Part shown: positions 3,851 to 54,029 of the stretch, piece after piece
How the letters are laid out: every line of letters starts with the position of its first letter
How positions within the stretch are numbered: position 1 is the stretch's first letter
Assembly: GCA_030615625.1 (NCBI GenBank)
Contig: JAUWYX010000002.1
Coordinates: 11,995 to 75,994 of the forward strand
Length of the DNA stretch: 64,000 nt
Source: Dehalococcoidia bacterium
GTDB taxonomy: Bacteria > Chloroflexota > Dehalococcoidia > GIF9 > AB-539-J10
Direction of reading: 5' to 3'
Made by a program: the position numbers and the translations under genes
The notes under the pieces: model-generated
The model's input: the letters and a program-made list of their open reading frames with translations, nothing else
Databases searched by the model: none
What the model was told of the DNA's origin: nothing

Positions 3851-4108
3851 TCAGTGAACTTTATAGGTACTGTCTCTGCTCGGGTTGAACTCTGCAAAGA
3901 AGCGAGCGATGTCCTCGCGCTTGAATCTGCGGTCACCACGGGGGGTAATGCGGTATGCCTTTATTCTTCCGCTATTACTCCACCGCCTCAGGGTGTTGGG
4001 ATGGATATGGAGCAGCCTGGCTACCTCCCTCACCGTCAGCATATCATCCATTTGGCCATTATTATCCATACTATCCATATCTTTTCCCATCTCCTCTTTA
4101 GTTAACAT
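3851..4108 (-). CDS. Excisionase/AlpA-family helix-turn-helix DNA-binding protein
   Basis: 85 aa; LTVREVARLLHIHPNTLRRWSNSGRIKAYRI matches the excisionase-family (MerR-superfamily) HTH consensus. Acidic N-terminus. Confidence 0.5.
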   Translation of the reverse strand: MLTKEEMGKDMDSMDNNGQMDDMLTVREVARLLHIHPNTLRRWSNSGRIKAYRITPRGDRRFKREDIARFFAEFNPSRDSTYKVH

Positions 4109-4484
4109 ATCTTAAGGGTAACTCACTTCAATCAACTGCACAATCACCCAAAAGTATCAATTTGATTAGAAAATGGTACTGGGAAAAAAGTCCTGGATTG
4201 GTAAAATTGGTAAGAAAGGTTAAGTTAGGTATATTGACTTCCTTTTGAAAAAGTGCTACTCTTATACATATTATTCCCATAAGTATTATGAATAATCTAC
4301 GCAAAGGAACACTAAGAGAGCGATTGCGTAAGTTCGCGGGAGTGCGAGTTGTGTGGTCGGGGAAAGCTGATGGCGGGCAAATGCATGTGTAAGGGAGGAT
4401 AGGCCGAAAGTTCTGTTGCCGTTTTATGTGTGAGGAGGCAGTGAAGCTGAGCCTGTAGCTGGTCGCTTGGGCTCGGTGGAGCTA

Positions 4485-4527
4485 ATAGCGAAACCGACCT
4501 TAAAGGTTAGTTTCGCTTTTGTGTTTA
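4485..4527 (+). terminator. Hairpin plus U-tract in the leader immediately upstream of the regulator gene (possible attenuator)
   Basis: AGCGAAAC..ACCTT-AAGGT..GTTTCGCT extended stem followed by TTTTGTGTTT, ending about 10 nt before the ATG at 4537. About 400 bp of untranslated leader precedes it. Confidence 0.3.
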
Positions 4528-4536
4528 GTGAAAGGG

Positions 4537-5247
4537 ATGAAAGTTCTGGTTGTTAGCCATTCGCAAGACTTATCGCAAGCTATTTCCCCTATCCTGAGAG
4601 TAAGATGGCCAGACTTAAGTTTAGTCCATGTCAACCAAGCCACGGAAAGCCTGGAGCTGATACATAGAGAACAGCCAGACATCGTTATGTTTTACCTCCC
4701 TGAGCGAAGCGAAGGAGCACCACCCCTGAACTGCTTTGACCTCATAAGCCGGATTCGCAGCTTCTCCGGTGTGCCCCTCATTGTTATTAGCCAGAGCGAT
4801 GATATCATGGACAAGGTAAAAGCTCTGGAGATGGGTGCCGATGACTGGGTGTCCCCATCTTTCAGCCCCATGGAGTTTATTGCCAAGGTCAATGCTATTC
4901 TCCGCCGCCGCTCCCCCCATAAGCCTGGTGTTTCCTTTTTCCTGAATGGCAAGCTATCTATAAATTACGACGCTCGCCAAGTACGCATCTCGGGAAAGCC
5001 AGTGAAGCTAACCCCTATTCAATATAAACTCCTTTGTCATTTAATCAAGAACCAGGGAAGGGTATGCAGCGCCGCCGAGTTGCTCCAGCATATCTGGGGG
5101 CCGAACTATAGTGATGAGAGAGAACTCCTGAAGCTGAGTGTTTATCGTTTGAGGTCTAAAATCGAGGAAAACCCCTCGGCCCCAGAAATCATTTTCAATG
5201 AAAGAGGCATAGGCTACGTCATTAGGGCCTCCAGTTCGAGTGGGTAG
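4537..5247 (+). CDS. OmpR/PhoB-family winged-helix regulator with aspartate-less (pseudo-)receiver domain
   Basis: C-terminal trans_reg_C domain (LTPIQYKLLCHLIKNQGRVCSAAELL...YRLRSKIE). The receiver fold is present but the acidic pocket is degenerate: VVSHSQD instead of DD, DIVMFYLPE puts Tyr at the phospho-Asp position, and DWVSPSF has Ser at the conserved Lys. Start chosen at MKVLVV with an AAGGGA SD; the ORF track starts 18 nt earlier. Confidence 0.7.
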   Translation: MKVLVVSHSQDLSQAISPILRVRWPDLSLVHVNQATESLELIHREQPDIVMFYLPERSEGAPPLNCFDLISRIRSFSGVPLIVISQSDDIMDKVKALEMGADDWVSPSFSPMEFIAKVNAILRRRSPHKPGVSFFLNGKLSINYDARQVRISGKPVKLTPIQYKLLCHLIKNQGRVCSAAELLQHIWGPNYSDERELLKLSVYRLRSKIEENPSAPEIIFNERGIGYVIRASSSSG

Positions 5248-6265: not shown

Positions 6266-6555
6266 ACTGGCACCTTAGGAGCTACCTCTACCTCGTCGGT
6301 CTCAATCCTGAGGGGAAGTCCATCTGCTTTCCGCTCGCTCAGACACCAGCGTATCTCCTGTGACACAAGTTCCGGTGTCTCTTCTGGGAGGGGCATATTG
6401 TGTTTCTCTCGCAGGGCTAGAATTCCCTCGATAGCCTCCCGAATATTAGCCATGGCTTCCTCTCGAGTGTCGCCCTGGCTGACGCACCCTGGTAGAGCTG
6501 GGCAGTGGATGGAATATCCGATTTTCTCAGGCTCAAGAATAACAGTGAATTTCAT
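6262..6555 (-). CDS. hicB: HicB-family antitoxin
   Basis: MKFTVILEPEKIGYSIHCPALPGCVSQGDTREEAMANIREAIEG is the UPF0150/HicB N-terminal domain. Start taken at MKFTV; the ORF track extends 16 codons further 5'. Confidence 0.65.
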   Translation of the reverse strand: MKFTVILEPEKIGYSIHCPALPGCVSQGDTREEAMANIREAIEGILALREKHNMPLPEETPELVSQEIRWCLSERKADGLPLRIETDEVEVAPKVPV

Positions 6556-6851
6556 AAATAACCTCCACCTAAATAGCATAGCAACAGGAGTTTGAAAATG
6601 CAAAATAGTCTGTGTCTAAGAACCTTTTTGATAATAACGACTGCCGACGCCCTGGATCCATTTCCAGGCAGGTCGATCAGGGCGACCGGGCTTCCTTATC
6701 AAGTCTCCTCTCCCTCGATAGGAGTTCCCTCTCCACTTGCTGGAGAGGGTTAGGGTGAGGTCAAGGTGAGGCTGAGTCCAATAAGGCACGCCTTAAATCA
6801 AAGATGAGGTGGGATGATTAATGAGAAACTCCAAAAAAGGAGGACCATAAA

Positions 6852-7499
6852 ATGAAAAGAATAGGACTTTTATGTCTGGCGCTGGTCCTGGCGCTGGGCG
6901 CGCTCGGCGTGGGCTACGCCATGTGGTCCGATACGCTCCAGATTGAGGGCGAAGTGAACACCGGCGAACTGAGTGTGATTTTTGACAGCCAGTATGACAA
7001 CGACCCCAGTGACAATGACCCCAAGGAAGCGGGCTCGTGGAATCTGACCACACTCGAATGGGAGGGGGCAAGATGGGACAAGAACGTAGCTTCCACTACG
7101 TCGACCTTCGATGACAAGTCTGCTAGGATCGTTGTGACCCTCGGCTATCCTTGCTACTGGGGTAGCGTACTCTGGGACGTGCACAACGTTGGCACCATCC
7201 CGGCAAAACTCCATTCGATAACGCTGACGAAGCTGAGCAAGCAATTGGACGAGTGGCCGATGAATAAGGCCCTCGACATCGACACCCGGTACTACGTTGA
7301 CGTCGAGCAGCTGAGAGTAAACAAAGTGCTCCAGGCCGACGATGATTTCAGCTTCATACTAAGTGCGTTCAACTGCACCCAGATTGATGCGTGTCAGGTG
7401 GGCTACCTGGACGTCACGGTGCACGTGGAGCAGGACGCTGAGCAGAAGAAAACGTACGACTTCGTCATTGACTATGTCTTTGCTAACTGGAATGAATGA
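6852..7499 (+). CDS. Secreted protein with SipW-cognate class signal peptide (TasA/camelysin-like), paralog 1
   Basis: N-terminus MKRIGLLCLALVLALGALGVGYAMWSDTLQIEGEV: hydrophobic core followed by G-x-G-Y-A-x-W-S-D, the hallmark of SipW-cognate signals (cf. TasA GGGTWAAFND). About 190-aa mature domain; the three paralogs share a cysteine pair (GYPCYW here, AYPCYY in the third). Confidence 0.6.
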   Translation: MKRIGLLCLALVLALGALGVGYAMWSDTLQIEGEVNTGELSVIFDSQYDNDPSDNDPKEAGSWNLTTLEWEGARWDKNVASTTSTFDDKSARIVVTLGYPCYWGSVLWDVHNVGTIPAKLHSITLTKLSKQLDEWPMNKALDIDTRYYVDVEQLRVNKVLQADDDFSFILSAFNCTQIDACQVGYLDVTVHVEQDAEQKKTYDFVIDYVFANWNE

Positions 7500-7723
7500 T
7501 GAGTGAAGACTGAGAGGAAGAGTTTTTCGGGGAGGGGGCTCTGTCCCCTCCCCAAAGGAGCCCGCCCTTCGGGGGAAACGTGAATAAAAAGGTCTCGGGA
7601 AAGCCCCACCCCCTCTTCTTGGCAGGGGAAGAGGCAAAGGATTATAATGGTCTTTACCCCTTCCCCTGGAAAGGAGAAAGGAATAGTGAAGCTGCCTTTC
7701 CGGCATAAAGATAAGGTGAGGGC

Positions 7724-8314
7724 TTGAGTATAATGAAAAAGAGAAGAAACAGGTTTTCCCGACTGGGACTGCTGCCCATAGTGCTGCTTTTGGCCCTGTG
7801 TCTCACCGGCGTGGGCTACGGCATGTGGTCGGACGAGGTTTACATCGAGGGCACAATCACCACAGGCACGTGGGATGTGGGCGGCACCATCGGCTTCTGG
7901 AAGAACTGGGACAATCACTATAACGAAGCGGAAATCGTGCCGTGGCTGGTGGCCATTAATTCTAGCTCAGAGTGGCTAGGCCCAACCACGGTGGAGGGAC
8001 TAGATGAACTGTTTGCCGCTGCCACGGGACAGTGTCCCCCTATGAAGAGCAAATTCCTGGTCCACTACATGGCTACCCGCCTGGATATCGCCTCTGGCCG
8101 GCTTGATGTGGGCAATACTCATGACGTTACCGGATGGGATGAAGATAACTATCTCGGTCTCCCCAACCCAGCATTGGCAACGCTGTCCGAGATAATTATT
8201 GCCATTGAAGGTAAGTACCCGGCTGAACCTGAAGACCCCGCAGCCTGGCCCACAACGGAGCAGTACGAGACAATGAAGGATATCTGTGACGCTTTGAACA
8301 ATTTGTGGATCTAG
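7724..8314 (+). CDS. Secreted protein with SipW-cognate class signal peptide, paralog 2
   Basis: LLLALCLTGVGYGMWSDEVYIEGTITTG has the same signal architecture. Divergent mature region. Confidence 0.55.
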   Translation: MSIMKKRRNRFSRLGLLPIVLLLALCLTGVGYGMWSDEVYIEGTITTGTWDVGGTIGFWKNWDNHYNEAEIVPWLVAINSSSEWLGPTTVEGLDELFAAATGQCPPMKSKFLVHYMATRLDIASGRLDVGNTHDVTGWDEDNYLGLPNPALATLSEIIIAIEGKYPAEPEDPAAWPTTEQYETMKDICDALNNLWI

Positions 8315-8375
8315 TTCGTCCTTGGTAGGGCGGGGAGAGGCTTCGCCCCTACGGAGGTTCTGGAAGGTTTAAGGA

Positions 8376-9023
8376 ATGACAAGAAAAAGAGTGATAGCGA
8401 AAGGCAACCTGGGCAGGCTGGGCATGTTGTCTCTGGCGCTGGTGGTGGCGCTGGCGGGGATGGGTGTGGGCTATGCCCAAATGCAGGGCGGCCTGCAGAG
8501 CAATGGCCAGGTGCTGACCGACTGCGCCTTCACCTGGGTGGTCTCCAACGACGATGGCGAGGTGACTAACATATCTCCTTATGGAGACATTGACCCCGGC
8601 GATGATAGCGGCGGCACCAGCTATGACAGGTGGGATGCCCAGAGCAGCGACGACCCCTCGAAAGCGCAGGAAATGGGAATTCCCTGCGCCAGGTATGATA
8701 AAGACGTGGCGCGAACCACCGTCCAGATGTCGGATGGCCAGCGGATAATCACCGTGCTGGTAGAAAACGCCTACCCGTGCTATTACCCGACGGTATTCTT
8801 CGGGCTGAAAAATACGCAGAGTTTTTCTGTCAAAATTAAGAGTATTGATATTAGTTACGACATGCCAGAGCTCACCGTCACGTTTGACGGGATAACTGAA
8901 AATCAGGTGCTCTCCACTGGCGAGGAGGTCATCGGTAGACTGGGAATTCACACTGAGCAGTCTGCTCATCAGAACTCAACCTATAATGTTGAGGTGAAGG
9001 TAGTGCTGGTTCAGAAAGAATGA
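8376..9023 (+). CDS. Secreted protein with SipW-cognate-like signal peptide, paralog 3
   Basis: LALVVALAGMGVGYAQMQGGLQSNGQV: same positional pattern, with WSD degenerated to MQG. Conserved ENAYPCYYPTVFFGL block aligned to paralog 1 LGYPCYWGSVLWDV. Confidence 0.55.
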   Translation: MTRKRVIAKGNLGRLGMLSLALVVALAGMGVGYAQMQGGLQSNGQVLTDCAFTWVVSNDDGEVTNISPYGDIDPGDDSGGTSYDRWDAQSSDDPSKAQEMGIPCARYDKDVARTTVQMSDGQRIITVLVENAYPCYYPTVFFGLKNTQSFSVKIKSIDISYDMPELTVTFDGITENQVLSTGEEVIGRLGIHTEQSAHQNSTYNVEVKVVLVQKE

Positions 9024-9126
9024 GTCGGGCTGCTGTTGGGGGCAGTGGGGACATTGGGGCCATTGGAAGTGGTGGTGGTGAGGGGAGGAACGCCCTGAAT
9101 AACCTTCAGATTTAACTGGCTCCCAC

Positions 9127-10341
9127 TTGACGCGCTGGGAGTTTGTCCCTTATAGTGGCGTTACGGTGGATATAAGCCTTAGAGACAACCCGCGGTATAA
9201 CTGGTTGCTTGTTCTCGGTCTGCTGGCTGCCATATACTTGCTGATAAACCTGGGACTGCCTCGTCTGCCCATCGACCCATTCGCCAAGGCTTATGTCGTC
9301 CAGCCCATACTCTGGGGACTCCTGGCCTGGGCAATTCTGGTCCTGCCCAAGTACAGGACGGCCGGCGGATTGAGGCTCAAGACTGCCATTATCCAACTGG
9401 CGTTGATGATTGGCTTTTTCCAGGTGGTGCTCTATGTCATTGGCGGGCTCTTCTCCAGCTTTGGCAGAAGCCCTAATTCTTTCACCCCGACGGGCATCCT
9501 GACCAACCTGGTCTTTGTCGGCGCAATGCTGGTGGGCATGGAACTCAGCCGCGCCTGGCTCATCAATCGCCTGGGAAAGAAACATACTTTCCTGGCGCTC
9601 GCCTTCGTGGCTGTGCTGTATACTGTGCTGGCTCTCCCCTTAGGCCGCATCACCGGTCTCAGGCCGGAGCTTGCATCCATCACTTATGTGAACTCGACTC
9701 TCCTGCCGACACTGGCCGAGAGCATGCTGGCCTCATTCCTGGCTCTGCTGGGCGGGCCGTTGGCTGCCATTGCCTACCGCGGGATACTCCAGGCGTTCTG
9801 GTGGTTCTGTCCCATCCTCCCCGACCTGGCCTGGGTGTTCAAGGGGCTTATCGGTGTGGTGGTACCCATCGTGGGGCTGGCGGTGGCAAATAGCCTTCGC
9901 GTTTCGCGACGCCGGCCCGGGCAGGCAAGACGAGAGAGGGAGGGCTCTCTGGCCGGCTGGATTGTTACCACAGTTATCGCCGTGGCCATAATCTGGTTCG
10001 CTGTCGGGTTGTTCCCGATGCAGCCGACGACAATAATCAGCGGCAGTATGAGGCCGACCCTGGACGTTGGCGATGTGGTCATCATCGCCAAGGTGTCGGC
10101 GGATACTGTCAAGCCAGGTGATATTATCCAGTTCCGGGAATCGGAAGGGGTTACCACAGTACATAGGGTGGTCGAGATTCAGGAAAGTGAAGGGATAAGA
10201 GTTTTTATAACCCAGGGGGATGCCAACAGTGAGCCAGATGCCAACCCCGTCCTCTTTGCGAATGTGGTCGGCAAAGCGGTTTTTGACATCCCCAAGATAG
10301 GCTGGGCAGCCATAGCGGTTAAGGAATTCTTTATGGGATAG
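9127..10341 (+). CDS. sipW: Archaeal/ER-type signal peptidase I (SipW-like) fused to an N-terminal polytopic membrane domain
   Basis: C-terminal 130 aa: TM anchor then GSMRPTLDVGDVVIIAK...HRVVEI...TQGDAN, the S26B/SipW catalytic core (cf. SGSMEPTxxxGD). N-terminal 270 aa has about 7 predicted TM helices with no recognisable family. A TTGACG-17-TATAGT promoter-like motif at 9124-9155 suggests the true start may be an in-frame GTG near 9166. Confidence 0.65.
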   Translation: MTRWEFVPYSGVTVDISLRDNPRYNWLLVLGLLAAIYLLINLGLPRLPIDPFAKAYVVQPILWGLLAWAILVLPKYRTAGGLRLKTAIIQLALMIGFFQVVLYVIGGLFSSFGRSPNSFTPTGILTNLVFVGAMLVGMELSRAWLINRLGKKHTFLALAFVAVLYTVLALPLGRITGLRPELASITYVNSTLLPTLAESMLASFLALLGGPLAAIAYRGILQAFWWFCPILPDLAWVFKGLIGVVVPIVGLAVANSLRVSRRRPGQARREREGSLAGWIVTTVIAVAIIWFAVGLFPMQPTTIISGSMRPTLDVGDVVIIAKVSADTVKPGDIIQFRESEGVTTVHRVVEIQESEGIRVFITQGDANSEPDANPVLFANVVGKAVFDIPKIGWAAIAVKEFFMG

Positions 10342-10642
10342 GTATGAAAGAGCAAAAGACAAATCCCAACTACAAAATCCCAATGCCCAAAACAGTTTTG
10401 AATAACGTCATCGCCAGGGGCGAAACTCCGATGCAATCTTGGGGGAGGGACAATGAAATTACCAAGCATCGACGAGTCAGAACTCAGAATGACAAAAAAT
10501 GCTTCACAAGTTTAGTGCGCGGGCTTAGCCTCGTGCGGCACGACCCTGAAGGGTCGCACTACAGAAATCTGGCGCGGAGGCTAAAGCAGAAACGAAGATT
10601 GACACCTTGGTTTTTACTCTTTAGAATAGGGAGATAAAGCTG

Positions 10643-12247
10643 ATGAAAGTCTGGAAGGCGTTTGCCGGGTCACGAAGGCTAAGAATAACTTGCTTCGCCC
10701 TGGCTGGTGCTCTGCTGGCGGCTTCAGTGGTTGGGCTCGGGTATTCTGTGGCGGCGCCGACCGAGGAAATACCGGCGAAATACGAGCATAGGGGACAGTT
10801 CGACTACACGGTTTACCTCAAGCCCAGTATCCTTTACGGTGATTTCATACCGACCGAGGAAGAAGAAGAGGAGGAGGTCCCTATGGTTTTCTTCCGAAAT
10901 ATCATTCAAGAGGTGCAACTGTCCTTCAACTACAACTTTAATTCCAGCCAGCCGCTGGCTAATGTTACCAATAAGGTGGTGGTGTCAGTAATTGCCAAGA
11001 ACCCTGGGGTGTGGCAGAAGGAAATGACGCAGTTGGAGGAGATTCATGCGGGAACAGAGTTCAAGGTGGATTTTCCTTTATCCCTTGCCTCACTAGAACA
11101 GGTGGTGGCTGATATCGAGCAAGAGATAGGGATTAGCACTACCCAGAGAAACTTCATCATCAGAGCTGTGGTTCATACCACGGCCGAGACTGCTCTGGGC
11201 AAGACCATCGAGGACGAATTCAGCTATGAGTTTACAGCCATAACCACAGCTAAGAAATTAGAACTGAAAGGCGACCTTGAGGGTAGTGAAGAGGGTTCCA
11301 AGGAGGGAATAAGGTATGAAGGGGAAGGCCGGTTTGACTACGAGGTATATCTCAAGCCGAATCAGCTTTATGAAACAGATGTGCTCAGGTCGGAGGCACC
11401 TCCTGTGGCAGAGCCTCCGGCAGAACCTCCGGCATCTCCCCAAACCCTGGGCCCAGGGCTGTTGTACTTTCCCAGGATAATTAGCAACATCAAAGCAAGT
11501 TTTTCTTATCAGTTTCTCTGCGATAGACCGATAAGCGAGCAGTCACAAGAGGTTGAGATCACCGCCACAATAGAGAACCCAGGACAGTGGAGCAAGAGCC
11601 TTGTCGTGGTGCCCGAAACAAACAAAGCAGGCAGCTTTACTATATCCTTTCCCATAGACATACAATATTTCACAATGGTGATTGATGCCATCGGGCAGGA
11701 GATAGGTGTGCGCGGGAGTTCCCACAAAATAGTGATTAAAGCTGATGTCCGCACCGTTGCCCGCACCGATCTGGGCATGGTAAACGAGGTCTATACTCAG
11801 ACATTAAGCGGTAAGCTGGAGGCAAATACTCTCACCTTTGATAAAGAGCTATCTGGGTCTCAATCGGGTTCCATTGGTGGAGCTGCGATACCTGGGGCTT
11901 CCGGGGAAGGTGGCTCGAGGGCACCCTGGATTATTGGTCTGGTGATAGCCTTGCTGGCTCTGGGCTATTTTGGCTGGAGCCAAACCCAACTTAGATTGGC
12001 GCCGGTTAGTGCTGGTGAAGCTGAAGCTGCTCGGGCTAGAAAGAAATATAGGCAGATGATGGTGGATGTTGAGGAGTTGCCGGGGGTAAAACCAACTGAG
12101 ACAGTTATACCCCTGAATTCACTGGACGATTTGGTAAGAATCGCCGATGACCTGGTCAAGCCCGTACTCCATCAAGCGGAGGAGGGGCGGCATAGTTATT
12201 GCATTATTGATAGCGGCGTAAGATACCTGTACGTCATTGAGACCTGA
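10643..12247 (+). CDS. Bitopic membrane protein with two about 190-aa tandem repeats, Glu/Pro-rich linkers and a cytoplasmic C-terminal tail (operon partner of sipW)
   Basis: N-terminal signal anchor (AGALLAASVVGLGYSVAAP). Repeat 1 YEHRGQFDYTVYLKPSILY...FRNIIQEVQLSFNYNF; repeat 2 YEGEGRFDYEVYLKPNQLY...FPRIISNIKASFSYQF. Then a Gly/Ser-rich stretch, TM (WIIGLVIALLALGYFGW) and a roughly 80-aa tail. Confidence 0.55.
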   Translation: MKVWKAFAGSRRLRITCFALAGALLAASVVGLGYSVAAPTEEIPAKYEHRGQFDYTVYLKPSILYGDFIPTEEEEEEEVPMVFFRNIIQEVQLSFNYNFNSSQPLANVTNKVVVSVIAKNPGVWQKEMTQLEEIHAGTEFKVDFPLSLASLEQVVADIEQEIGISTTQRNFIIRAVVHTTAETALGKTIEDEFSYEFTAITTAKKLELKGDLEGSEEGSKEGIRYEGEGRFDYEVYLKPNQLYETDVLRSEAPPVAEPPAEPPASPQTLGPGLLYFPRIISNIKASFSYQFLCDRPISEQSQEVEITATIENPGQWSKSLVVVPETNKAGSFTISFPIDIQYFTMVIDAIGQEIGVRGSSHKIVIKADVRTVARTDLGMVNEVYTQTLSGKLEANTLTFDKELSGSQSGSIGGAAIPGASGEGGSRAPWIIGLVIALLALGYFGWSQTQLRLAPVSAGEAEAARARKKYRQMMVDVEELPGVKPTETVIPLNSLDDLVRIADDLVKPVLHQAEEGRHSYCIIDSGVRYLYVIET

Positions 12248-12419
12248 AAATAGTGCTAACCCGCGATGTAGACTAGAAGCTACATTGCCCAGTGTATAGC
12301 GACCAAGCAACGCCCAAGGTAACCATGAGATTGCTTCGTCTCGATAAATCGGGACTCGCAAAGACAGAGGGGAATTACCAACTCTATGCAGAGTCAGCTT
12401 TCAGGCAGGTTCAGGCACA

Positions 12420-12540
12420 ATTAGAGCTTAGTATCTCTTCCAGCACCTCTGTCCATCTGTCCCCGAGGAGCCTAGTGTCTAACTTGATTTGCGTGGCGCC
12501 TATTTTAACTGCACCATCAATAGGGTTGTCAGTGGTCAAC
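12420..12540 (-). pseudogene. Orphan diverged duplicate of the mfd 3' end (last ~40 codons plus stop region)
   Basis: About 115 nt at about 90% identity to 13715-13830 (AATTAGA..CAGCACCTCTG.CCATCTGTCCCC.AGGAGCCT.GTGTCTAACTTGAT.TGCGTGGC.CCTATTTTAACTGC.CCATCAA.AGGG). It lies on the far side of the DUF362 gene. Confidence 0.6.
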
Positions 12541-12673
12541 GGAAACTGGGAGAGATGGCACGCTTACGCTTGCTTCGGCTGCCGAATGGTTGTCGAGCCC
12601 CCGCTCCTATGGCAGCCCCATCAGTGATGAGTTTCAGGATTTCTTGCCCGGCTTTCTGCCACTCCTCAACAGT

Positions 12674-13615
12674 TCATTCAACTACAATGTAGCGGTCCTC
12701 CCCTGTCCCCAAGCCATGCCTCAAAGCTGTCCTGACCTGGGGTAACTGCCAGGGGTCCGCCACGAGCTTGTTATTGGCCTCATAAGCCAAGAGCACTTTA
12801 ATCGCTTCGACATCAATAGCCACAAGGTCCCCGGAAGCAAGCACCACTTCAGGCTCCGCCAACTGGCCCTTGGCAGGACCACCTGAAACGAAGGCCTTTC
12901 TGCCATCCATGATTATGAGATTTGGTTGCCAGCACAGGCTGATTTCCGCAATCTTTTGCTCCAAGTGGCGAGCGTGAAGAGCACGCCGTTCGCCAGGGTG
13001 CACAAAGCCTACCGCAAGCTTCAGCGCCCCCGAAAATCGTGCCAAAATATGGGTTTTCAGGCAGGGCAGGTATACTATCTTGTCAGCTTCATAGGCTGAG
13101 CGTGGCATGGAAACAGAGCTCAGATAGTCCCCATTAACCTTGACCCTTACCCAATCATCAGGTTTATCATCGAAAGCAATGAGCTCCACCCCCAGATCAC
13201 GCGCTAACTCAAAAATACCCAGTTTCCTGAACACTTTGCTGGTGGGTCTCCATATCCCACCGGAGCTTTCGCCTATTGTAACTTTTGCTCCCGCTTCCAG
13301 GAGGAGTTCGACTACGGCGCGCAGAAACACCAGGTCGGTAGAGCCAGGATACGGGTCCTGGCTGTTAAAATTTGGCTTAAGCAGAACCCTGTCGCCCTTG
13401 TCTATAACCGGCTCCAGGGAACCCAGCAGTGCGATGGCCCTATCAATAGCAGCCTTGATGTCTCCACCTGCCTTCACCTTAGCCACCAGAGCCTGGCCAT
13501 TTCTGAGCCAGGGGTTGGCAGGGCGAGGCCTGGGGTCAACAAGCGGAATATCCCTGGGCGCCCTATCAGTGAGGAAGTGATAAACCCCGGCAATCTTATC
13601 TCCAAAATCCGTCAT
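12674..13615 (-). CDS. DUF362-family protein (inserted between mfd and an orphan mfd 3' copy)
   Basis: LLKPNFNSQDPYPGSTDLVFLRAVVE and the C-terminal block resemble the DUF362 fold. Start set at ATG 13615 with an AAGGAGG SD; the ORF track extends to 13657. Confidence 0.55.
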   Translation of the reverse strand: MTDFGDKIAGVYHFLTDRAPRDIPLVDPRPRPANPWLRNGQALVAKVKAGGDIKAAIDRAIALLGSLEPVIDKGDRVLLKPNFNSQDPYPGSTDLVFLRAVVELLLEAGAKVTIGESSGGIWRPTSKVFRKLGIFELARDLGVELIAFDDKPDDWVRVKVNGDYLSSVSMPRSAYEADKIVYLPCLKTHILARFSGALKLAVGFVHPGERRALHARHLEQKIAEISLCWQPNLIIMDGRKAFVSGGPAKGQLAEPEVVLASGDLVAIDVEAIKVLLAYEANNKLVADPWQLPQVRTALRHGLGTGEDRYIVVE

Positions 13616-17585: not shown

Positions 17586-17689
17586 CCCTCCGCTTTTTGT
17601 CATTGCGAGCCCCGACTTGTCGGGGCGTGGCAATCTCATTGCCTTCCCACCCAGATTGCTTCGTCACTTCGCTCCTCGCAATGACAAAG
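17586..17689. repeat. MITE-like element with 14-bp perfect terminal inverted repeats
   Basis: TTTGTCATTGCGAG at the left end and CTCGCAATGACAAA at the right end. Internal hairpin CCCCGAC-TTGT-CGGGGC and a GATTGCTTCGTCACTTCG motif shared with the copy at 5440. Confidence 0.6.
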
Positions 17690-53650: not shown

Positions 53651-53806
<156 letters not shown>

Positions 53807-54029
53807 CTTATTGTTTCACTCATAGCGATACTGGTAGGGTGAACGCCACAAACCTAAGTCGCTTATTTTATTTGGTTATTAATATTAATGAGATAGACAT
53901 CACTCTCTGTTTTCTAATGCCCCTTTTCATGTCATGGAAAAATTCAAACATTCTAAATGAATTTACAAAACCCCTAATGCTTGCTATAAACTAGTTTTGA
54001 TGATAATGTTGGTTGCTTAAACTTAAATA

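Follow-up and report, generated by a model that had tools for sequence, protein, structure and literature searches.

What does the five-gene operon at positions 6852 to 12247 of this stretch of DNA build, and how does the signal peptidase that it encodes choose its substrates? The stretch, a segment of 64,000 nucleotides of contig JAUWYX010000002.1 from a Dehalococcoidia bacterium (Chloroflexota), is called here the window. An earlier examination of the letters alone (the sequence-only reading) had taken its five genes, denoted A to E, for a secretion and fibre operon, and all five are present in the same direction on the + strand in the list of open reading frames (ORFs). We conclude, with a probability of roughly three in four, that the locus is an operon for an AbpX-type fibre (biomatrix pilus) of the TasA superfamily, in which subunits exported by Sec would be cleaved by D and would polymerise by donor-strand complementation, with B and C at the ends, E as an accessory and cyclic di-GMP (c-di-GMP) acting upstream. 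The operon is composed of the following features:

6852-7499, + strand: A, ORF of 215 amino acids (aa), AbpX-like fibre subunit and candidate major subunit, with a predicted signal peptide at residues 1-23 (6852-6920)
7724-8314, + strand: B, ORF of 196 aa with a likely ATG start at 7733; an unrelated domain of about 130 residues, found in Chloroflexota only, follows the predicted signal peptide and donor strand (MWSDEVYIEGTITTG)
8376-9023, + strand: C, ORF of 215 aa, AbpX-like paralogue of predicted jelly-roll fold (28% identity to A) with the degenerate donor strand QMQGGLQSNG
9127-10341, + strand: D, ORF of 404 aa, polytopic signal peptidase starting at TTG 9127 or GTG 9166
9166-9912, + strand: membrane domain of D (residues 14-262), about eight transmembrane (TM) helices, in no curated family
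9940-10341, + strand: membrane anchor (residues 272-304) and peptidase domain of D, from TIGR02228 and the alignment to SEC11A/C
10045, 10162 and 10219, + strand: putative catalytic residues Ser307, His346 and Asp365 of D, from motif alignment
10643-12247, + strand: E, ORF of 534 aa, DUF5305 protein with a first TM helix (residues 12-39), repeats at 10784-11200 and 11318-11776, a second TM helix at 11909-11986 and a cytoplasmic tail

Gene A, which is preceded by a good ribosome-binding site (AAAGGAGGA) within the non-coding leader listed below, links the operon to a fibre of solved structure. The profile of the A family (57 proteins) matched the fibril subunit AbpX of Pyrodictium abyssi in the Protein Data Bank (PDB; 9sj2_C, E 1.7e-11), as well as 9rhp_A (E 1.9e-8). 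The alignment to AbpX spans the full length (profile positions 24-201 against AbpX residues 1-161), and the A sequence alone barely detects it (E 0.12). Residue 1 of mature AbpX (QWSETLSLSATISTG, QWSETLSL...) pairs with MWSDTLTIEGTVNTG (MWSDTLTI...), right after GVGYA, and because the mature end of AbpX aligns there, cleavage of A is predicted after GVGYA23, a site whose -1 and -3 positions hold small residues. The predicted mature N-terminus, MWSDTLQIEG..., would be the donor strand. The AlphaFold2 (AF2) model of mature A describes a confident all-beta sandwich of about 190 residues (predicted local distance difference test, pLDDT, 94), apart from low values over the first ten or so residues, which would be expected of a donor strand lacking its partner. 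A Foldseek comparison of this model with the PDB gave no match at E <= 1e-3. The A and C proteins are AbpX-family proteins, probably of jelly-roll fold, with SipW-like signal peptides, and the A family belongs to the AbpX clade of the TasA superfamily.

The three secreted proteins, each with one N-terminal hydrophobic segment, are acidic in their mature forms, with isoelectric points of 4.25, 4.07 and 4.28 and Asp plus Glu contents of 17.2%, 16.0% and 14.9% for A, B and C, respectively. The AbpX family is characterised by acidic mature proteins whose donor strand carries an aromatic side chain at +2 and an acidic one at +4 (10.64898/2026.01.04.697558). Mature A and B carry W at +2 and D at +4 (M-W-S-D), and C fails in both positions (Q-M-Q-G). 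The motif G-x-G-Y-A/G-x-W-S-D, which the sequence-only reading had assigned to all three N-termini, is therefore borne by A and B; in C the junction reads GVGYA-QMQGG, without W-S-D. Among the AbpX-like ORFs of related loci, 124 of 206 contain GxGxAxWx[DE]. The three proteins had also been taken for paralogues, which holds for A and C over their full length (28% identity, E 1e-18). It does not hold for B, which has only 20 residues in common with A, GVGY(A/G)MWSDxxxIEGxxTTG, comprising the end of the signal peptide and the next 15 or so residues.

These same data bear on a different view of A, B and C, according to which they would be secreted enzymes or peptide precursors, either proteases of the camelysin type (M73) or what JGI nomenclature calls 'ribosomally synthesized peptides with SipW-like signal peptide'. 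That name is attached to two A-family homologues and one B-family homologue, and one of the 57 A-family members matches PF12389 (Camelysin) weakly, at E 0.0029. However, the JGI name merely mirrors a match to the signal-peptide model TIGR04088, and the window proteins have no M73 match. The confident beta-sandwich modelled for A and the full-length match of its family profile to the solved AbpX subunit likewise point away from an enzyme or peptide, a possibility to which we assign very little weight.

The fibre interpretation gains further support from the conservation of gene order. A genome scan with an alignment of the membrane domain of D, at one genome per species, found 224 genomes, of which 80 were kept. 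The 80 loci are from Dehalococcoidia, other Chloroflexota, many Bacillota (Peptococcaceae, Syntrophomonadaceae, Heliobacterium, Pelotomaculum, Tissierella and others), Bipolaricaulota, Bathyarchaeia, Thermoplasmata and some metagenome-assembled genomes labelled Deltaproteobacteria. Local mapping with hidden Markov models covered 83 sequences, the window and 82 fetched loci (numbered L001 onwards; L001, L002 and L004 are the same genomic region), and located AbpX-like ORFs in 69 and DUF5305 in 64 of them, almost always in the order subunits, polytopic peptidase, DUF5305. The sequence-only reading had proposed neighbourhood conservation as a check, and the order indeed recurs in most of the 80 species-level loci and in several phyla. 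A Dehalococcoidales contig of 596 kb shares the flanks of the window as well, with a response-regulator pair upstream and mfd downstream. The claim that the operon forms a dedicated peptidase-plus-substrates module analogous to tapA-sipW-tasA is thus upheld by substrates of the AbpX clade, an intact S26B peptidase and a gene order kept in about 80 genomes.

Genes B and C depart from the plan of A in complementary ways. The B protein is probably 193 aa long, starting from ATG 7733, as in the gene call on the independent assembly L083. Its C-terminal 130 or so residues define a small family with a GGTIGFWKNW motif, whose 52 clusters come exclusively from Dehalococcoidia or Chloroflexi and which has no relative in Pfam or the PDB; a weak Arf match of this domain lay under threshold and was taken as chance. 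The donor strand is thus present in B and the acceptor jelly roll absent, and B is therefore proposed to cap the acceptor end, i.e., the open groove of the fibre. The C subclass adjoins the peptidase gene on its upstream side in Dehalococcoidia and Bathyarchaeia loci, and its donor strands are degenerate (e.g., GYA-QMQGG, GYA-RMQGG and YAC-WNG). Orthologues of C in L003 (1714-3600) and L007 (5872-7806) are 628-644 aa long and contain extra DUF7507/DUF11 and CARDB Ig-like domains, whereas the C protein of the window consists of the 215-aa module alone. The L003 orthologue is 62% identical to it over all 215 residues and then continues for about 410 more. Since C would retain the jelly roll and has a degenerate strand, it is proposed to lie at the opposite end as a terminal (tip-base) subunit.

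The peptidase of the operon is encoded by D. Its C-terminal 110 or so residues score 91.1 bits with TIGR02228 and 39.2 with PF10502, above the respective curated cut-offs of 51.85 and 22.9, and its closest solved relatives are human SEC11C and SEC11A (E 3.5e-9). The motifs SGSMRP, VHRV and GDAN of D align to SGSMEP, VHRV and GDNN of SEC11A/C, and the catalytic Ser, His and Asp are invariant or nearly so in 40-115 homologues. Judged by these alignments, D is a catalytically intact signal peptidase of the archaeal/endoplasmic reticulum type (S26B), as had been claimed, with the Ser and His catalytic residues in place. The equivalog model of Bacillus SipW (NF046067) gave D 72.1 bits, short of its cut-off of 190. 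By this measure, D is related to SipW and is not its orthologue.

The joining of this peptidase to a polytopic membrane domain could in principle be an artefact of assembly or a frameshift that merged a membrane-protein gene with a SipW gene, and the sequence-only reading had named this as something that would refute it. Nothing was found in favour of an artefact, the sole uncertainty being the choice of start codon between TTG 9127 and GTG 9166. D is a single intact ORF. Its architecture is shared by more than 120 full-length homologues, 66-93% identical to it, that a word-indexed search retrieved, the named ones among them being signal peptidase I of Dehalococcoidia. The architecture is identical in hundreds of distant homologues, in independent assemblies and several phyla, and the same 404-residue gene occurs in an independent Logan assembly. 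Because the fusion is conserved across homologues, the artefact is already refuted, its residual probability being negligible, and the fusion can be taken as genuine.

With its membrane domain, D is unusually large for a signal peptidase. Hydropathy reveals seven to eight segments in the first 260 residues of D, followed by the anchor at residues 272-304. An AF2 model from a 40-sequence alignment, used for the helix count only given its pLDDT of 53, places eight helices before the anchor and a short C-terminal helix after it. The description of this part as a novel 7-TM domain proved right in that the domain is polytopic and in no curated family; however, it has about eight helices and had already been noted in a preprint. 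Neither the domain nor its consensus matched any Pfam or NCBIfam model even at E <= 10, its profile had no match among PDB sequences, and an hhalign self-comparison revealed no internal repeat. Against 1.84 billion cluster representatives, the profile retrieved 810 proteins at E <= 1e-3, of which 209 reach E <= 1e-30. Peptidase_S26 was found on 96 of 115 membrane-domain representatives, and in none of the 115 did a known family cover the membrane domain. About 102 of 113 proteins with a complete membrane domain have at least 135 residues after it, the size of a peptidase module. By these counts, the domain is essentially an obligate partner of S26. Its diverse members share the invariant residues W63, G107, G113, E139, R142, P194, L205, G210, P229 and P232 and the motifs FGxSPY, GxExxRAY, LAENLLA, AYRG and SPILPD. 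According to the positive-inside rule, the basic loops at residues 72-83, 146-153 and 261-274 would be cytoplasmic. The FGxSPY and SPILPD loops would then lie on the same face of the membrane as the active site, and E139/R142 would sit in helix 4 near its cytoplasmic end.

What this domain does is the step of our interpretation with the least support. Most likely, it is an intramembrane docking site for cognate signal peptides. The domain could alternatively be a second enzyme, either a CPBP/Rce1 or signal-peptide-peptidase-like protease, which would destroy the released signal peptide or add a second cut, or an exosortase/archaeosortase-like transpeptidase, which would anchor the fibre. Residues E139 and R142 (GMELSRAW), invariant in the 115 diverse representatives, are loosely reminiscent of the EExxxR motif of CPBP proteins, and exosortases and prepilin peptidases are polytopic as well. 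However, the domain has no conserved His, Asp pair or Cys, and the null searches of Pfam and NCBIfam (CPBP and exosortase models included) and of the PDB provide no trace of such an enzyme. In particular, a CPBP/Rce1 protease (EExxxR, FxxxH, HxxxN/D) was rejected since only ExxR is kept, there is no conserved His, the spacing from E to R is unlike that of the CPBP motif and no Pfam model matched. An exosortase-like domain was ruled out because Cys228 is not conserved, being replaced in homologues with Ser, Thr, Met or Phe. We regard a second enzyme in D as improbable.

The membrane domain could also be a platform for assembly or anchoring and not a module of substrate recognition. It would then retain freshly cleaved subunits and order their donor-strand polymerisation at the membrane, as a 'peptidase-usher', or tether the base of the fibre to a cell without a peptidoglycan wall. 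The obligate fusion to the peptidase would fit this role, as would the predicted position of FGxSPY and SPILPD in extracytoplasmic loops on the active-site side, derived from the positive-inside rule, and the absence of SLH or LPXTG anchors in the Dehalococcoidia loci examined, unlike Bacillota loci L044 and L060 with their apparent anchors. Conversely, AbpX and TasA polymerise in vitro without a platform (10.64898/2026.01.04.697558), the membrane domain is present also in Bacillota loci with apparent SLH anchors, and the topology is taken from a low-confidence model. We consider this role unlikely, though less so than a second enzyme. A bolder version of it would make the eight-helix domain, with Glu139/Arg142, a new membrane module and D a single-polypeptide 'peptidase-usher' that binds the signal peptide in the membrane and hands the donor strand to the fibre together with the DUF5305 protein, under a c-di-GMP switch exerted through the riboswitch and response-regulator pair described below. 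We offer this version as a speculation that is rather doubtful as it stands; if true, wall-less Dehalococcoidia would possess a c-di-GMP-regulated matrix fibre. Docking of signal peptides remains our preferred role for the membrane domain. As a separate observation, proteins encoded near the subunit genes of L044 (5144-6289) and L060 (4810-6105) end in SLH-like repeats, recognised by eye, and c-di-GMP-II-like aptamers precede them.

The last gene of the operon, E, had been described as a bitopic protein with two internal repeats and a cytoplasmic tail, and this layout was recovered in full. Hydropathy delineates a TM helix at residues 12-39, an ectodomain, a second TM helix at residues 423-448 and a tail of 86 residues. 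The ectodomain is duplicated, residues 48-186 aligning to residues 226-378 with 31% identity (E 5e-24). The protein could be assigned to a family, DUF5305 (PF17231; 96.1 bits against a cut-off of 29). The long form of DUF5305 (about 500-570 aa) is usual in Dehalococcoidia, and Bacillota and archaeal loci encode forms of about 350-390 aa.

The regulation of the operon is suggested by the region upstream, where the following features were identified:

4425-4508, + strand: c-di-GMP-II riboswitch aptamer (Rfam RF01786)
4519-5247, + strand: OmpR-type response regulator, likely ATG at 4537 (MKVLVVSH); the syntenic gene in L001 carries PF00072 and PF00486
5591-5995, + strand: receiver-only response regulator; the L083 gene, which is identical, and its syntenic counterpart in L001 carry PF00072
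6041-6265 and 6262-6603, - strand: hicA/hicB-like toxin-antitoxin pair; HicB_lk_antitox on the identical gene in L083
6589-6851, + strand: conserved non-coding leader of A, 81-88% identical to L017, L001 and L006
6782-6798, + strand: palindromic box TAAGGCACGCCTTAAAT (TAAGGCACGCCTTA box), 54-70 nucleotides before the start codon of A

The aptamer scored 61.5 bits (E 3e-11), above the Rfam gathering score of 53.5, covering model positions 1-84 of 84, and lies 11-29 nucleotides upstream of the gene of the OmpR-type regulator, a gene that is kept upstream of the operon in close Dehalococcoidia loci. Rfam also recovered a c-di-GMP-II aptamer upstream of the same regulator pair in L007 (1464-1547), L017 (2508-2591) and L018 (4052-4135). 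In L006 it detected an additional copy, and in L053 an aptamer of the c-di-GMP-I class. When five copies were used to build a covariance model, 17 of the 81 sequences searched contained matches, 20 in total. These matches lie on the 5' side of the regulator pair in Dehalococcoidia, including L001 (5382-5465), on the 5' side of a HisKA_3-type sensor kinase in several Bacillota, and directly on the 5' side of a subunit gene in L020 (6756-6839, - strand), L048 and L060. The recurrent position of the aptamer supports control by c-di-GMP and a role of the fibre in matrix or adhesion. Expression of the operon is probably tied to c-di-GMP through the regulator pair headed by the riboswitch.

Closer to the operon, the leader of about 260 nucleotides is well conserved among the close relatives L017, L001 and L006. 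The box TAAGGCACGCCTTAAAT within it keeps a constant spacing to the first subunit gene across L001, L006, L007 and L017 and may be an operator or a hairpin of the 5' untranslated region. The hicAB pair is inserted between the regulator pair and this leader and is absent from that place in L001 and L017. A promoter and terminator scan of positions 6400-12800 returned sites no more numerous than in shuffled sequence. On the other side of the riboswitch-regulator unit, and divergent from it, a small helix-turn-helix ORF (MerR/excisionase-like) lies at 3851-4108 on the - strand. L001 has a gene with HTH_17/MerR matches at the same place, and the ORF may therefore be part of the regulatory region.

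Taken together, these features suggest how the system could work. The pre-subunits would be exported by Sec and cleaved by D after G-V-G-Y-A/G, where the residues at -1 and -3 are small, which would expose a donor strand M-W-S-D... with its aromatic residue at +2 and acidic residue at +4. The membrane domain of D would dock the cognate signal peptides, making of D a self-contained peptidase complex dedicated to its substrates, with E as its membrane accessory subunit. Like AbpX, the acidic subunits would then polymerise outside the cell through donor-strand complementation, in which calcium may take part. In this fibre, A would be the repeating subunit, B would close off one end by occupying the groove left open there, and C would sit at the opposite end, where its orthologues carry Ig-like adhesion domains. 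Signalling by c-di-GMP would act through the riboswitch-led response-regulator pair upstream.

Several points weigh against this interpretation. The sequence-only reading had considered the N-terminal motif diagnostic of the SipW-cognate class, a claim that failed: A scored 15.8 bits with TIGR04088, below the cut-off of 19, and B and C had no match at E <= 1. Note however that 18 of the 57 A homologues match this model weakly (best E 3.8e-4), and in these profile comparisons the resemblance of the A family to the SipW-cognate class is real though sub-threshold. The TasA/camelysin model PF12389 (Peptidase_M73) left A, B and C unmatched at E <= 1. The cleavage site, the fibre and its calcium dependence are predictions for this organism. 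The roles of B and C are deduced solely from which of the two elements, donor strand and jelly roll, each protein has or lacks, and the topology of D and the role of its membrane domain depend on hydropathy, the positive-inside rule and conservation, with an AF2 model of pLDDT 53. Finally, the link between riboswitch and operon is one of synteny, with two regulator genes and the hicAB pair intervening.

The fibre interpretation can be set against previously described systems. AbpX was named, and an adjacent dedicated signal peptidase noted, in 2025 (PMC12518558). A preprint of January 2026 (10.64898/2026.01.04.697558) described AbpX homologues in Bacillota and Chloroflexota, an associated signal peptidase with ten TM helices in bacteria and archaea, left without family or function, and loci with minor subunits, tip proteins and a DUF5305 protein, the last proposed as accessory subunit of the peptidase; it also linked bacterial AbpX loci to two-component and c-di-GMP enzymes. 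TasA-family homologues had been reported in Chloroflexota in 2022 (PMC9245690). The statement that the lineage was one in which no such module is described consequently had to be abandoned, and since the preprint reports AbpX, the ten-helix peptidase and DUF5305, the operon is a member of a recently described kind. The preprint makes no mention of Dehalococcoidia or riboswitches, and we found no paper that assigns a function to a membrane domain of the D type.

The operon agrees with AbpX loci in its subunit family (profile E 1.7e-11 to 9sj2), acidic mature proteins, donor strand with aromatic +2 and acidic +4, dedicated TIGR02228 peptidase of about ten TM helices, minor and tip-type paralogues, accessory DUF5305 gene and presence in Chloroflexota. 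It differs in the duplicated ectodomain of its DUF5305 protein (534 aa against about 350-390), in the lineage-specific cap protein B, in the lack of an SLH or LPXTG anchor and in the c-di-GMP-II riboswitch and response-regulator pair upstream. It is also a Dehalococcoidia example that had not been individually described, and its fibre is predicted.

Other systems share parts of this arrangement. The tapA-sipW-tasA operon of Bacillus subtilis similarly encodes a dedicated S26B-type peptidase with a jelly-roll fibre subunit and an accessory subunit, and the jelly roll, polymerisation by donor-strand complementation and a role in the biofilm matrix, all predicted for the window, are common to both. 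However, SipW has no eight-helix domain and D is not its orthologue (NF046067, 72 against 190 bits), the subunits of the window do not match PF12389, and DUF5305 takes the place of a TapA homologue. The haloarchaeal Tat-fimbriae (Tafi; tafA-G) comprise donor-strand fibre subunits, a dedicated peptidase, TafD, and a DUF5305 protein, TafG (PMC11821415, PMC12337348); TafD is genetically needed for the processing of TafA, and TafG is paired with the peptidase (PMC11821415). Tafi subunits nevertheless belong to a different subunit clade and travel via Tat, whereas the signal peptides of the window have no twin-arginine motif, and TafD, with four TM helices and a second domain outside the cell, has no N-terminal eight-helix domain. 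The eukaryotic signal peptidase complex (SEC11A/C, SPC22/23, SPC12 and SPC25; 7p2p, 7p2q) shares the SEC11-like catalytic domain (E 3.5e-9). It is also analogous in that a multi-helix membrane assembly, together with a beta-rich accessory domain on the luminal or extracellular side, surrounds the catalytic subunit; the preprint makes this comparison for DUF5305 too. In D, however, the extra helices are fused to the catalytic subunit and have no detectable homology to SPC12 or SPC25, and the eukaryotic complex is a general peptidase, unlike the window system with its few dedicated substrates.

It is becoming apparent that organisms of different domains build biofilm matrices from fibres of the TasA superfamily, and Dehalococcoidia are important in subsurface and organohalide-respiring communities, although their surface structures are poorly known. 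The locus is in this respect a complete AbpX-type module in Dehalococcoidia, with subunits, cap-like and tip-like proteins, a polytopic dedicated peptidase and DUF5305. Its remaining value lies in the fused uncurated membrane domain, the proposed division of labour among A, B and C, and the association with a c-di-GMP riboswitch. Two aspects extend beyond the literature that we found. The first is the family of the membrane domain, with 810 clusters at 50% identity, an essentially invariable fusion to S26 and an invariant Glu/Arg, which provides a concrete target for studying how dedicated signal peptidases choose their substrates. The second is the repeated placement of c-di-GMP-II aptamers at the head of these clusters in Chloroflexota and Bacillota, which makes a link between c-di-GMP and AbpX testable.

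A few minor observations concern the remaining DNA. The spacer between D and E (10342-10642) is unusually long (300 nucleotides) and contains, especially at 10513-10572 and 10407-10498, a short dispersed repeat with the hairpin GCACGACCCTGAAGGGTCGCAC. Related Dehalococcoidia loci have further copies of this repeat in several of their intergenic regions, with four in L007 and others in L003, L006 and L019, and a segment of 93 nucleotides of the spacer is 75% identical to window positions 17594-17685 on the - strand. The spacer also holds a sigma-70-like match, TTGACA-17-TAGAAT, at 10599-10627, and an ORF of 97 aa at 10344-10637 that is probably spurious. Farther downstream, between 50000 and 58000, a tRNA-Met gene (53735-53807) is surrounded by DNA of lower GC content (0.38-0.44 against about 0.50), which may indicate an integrated element.

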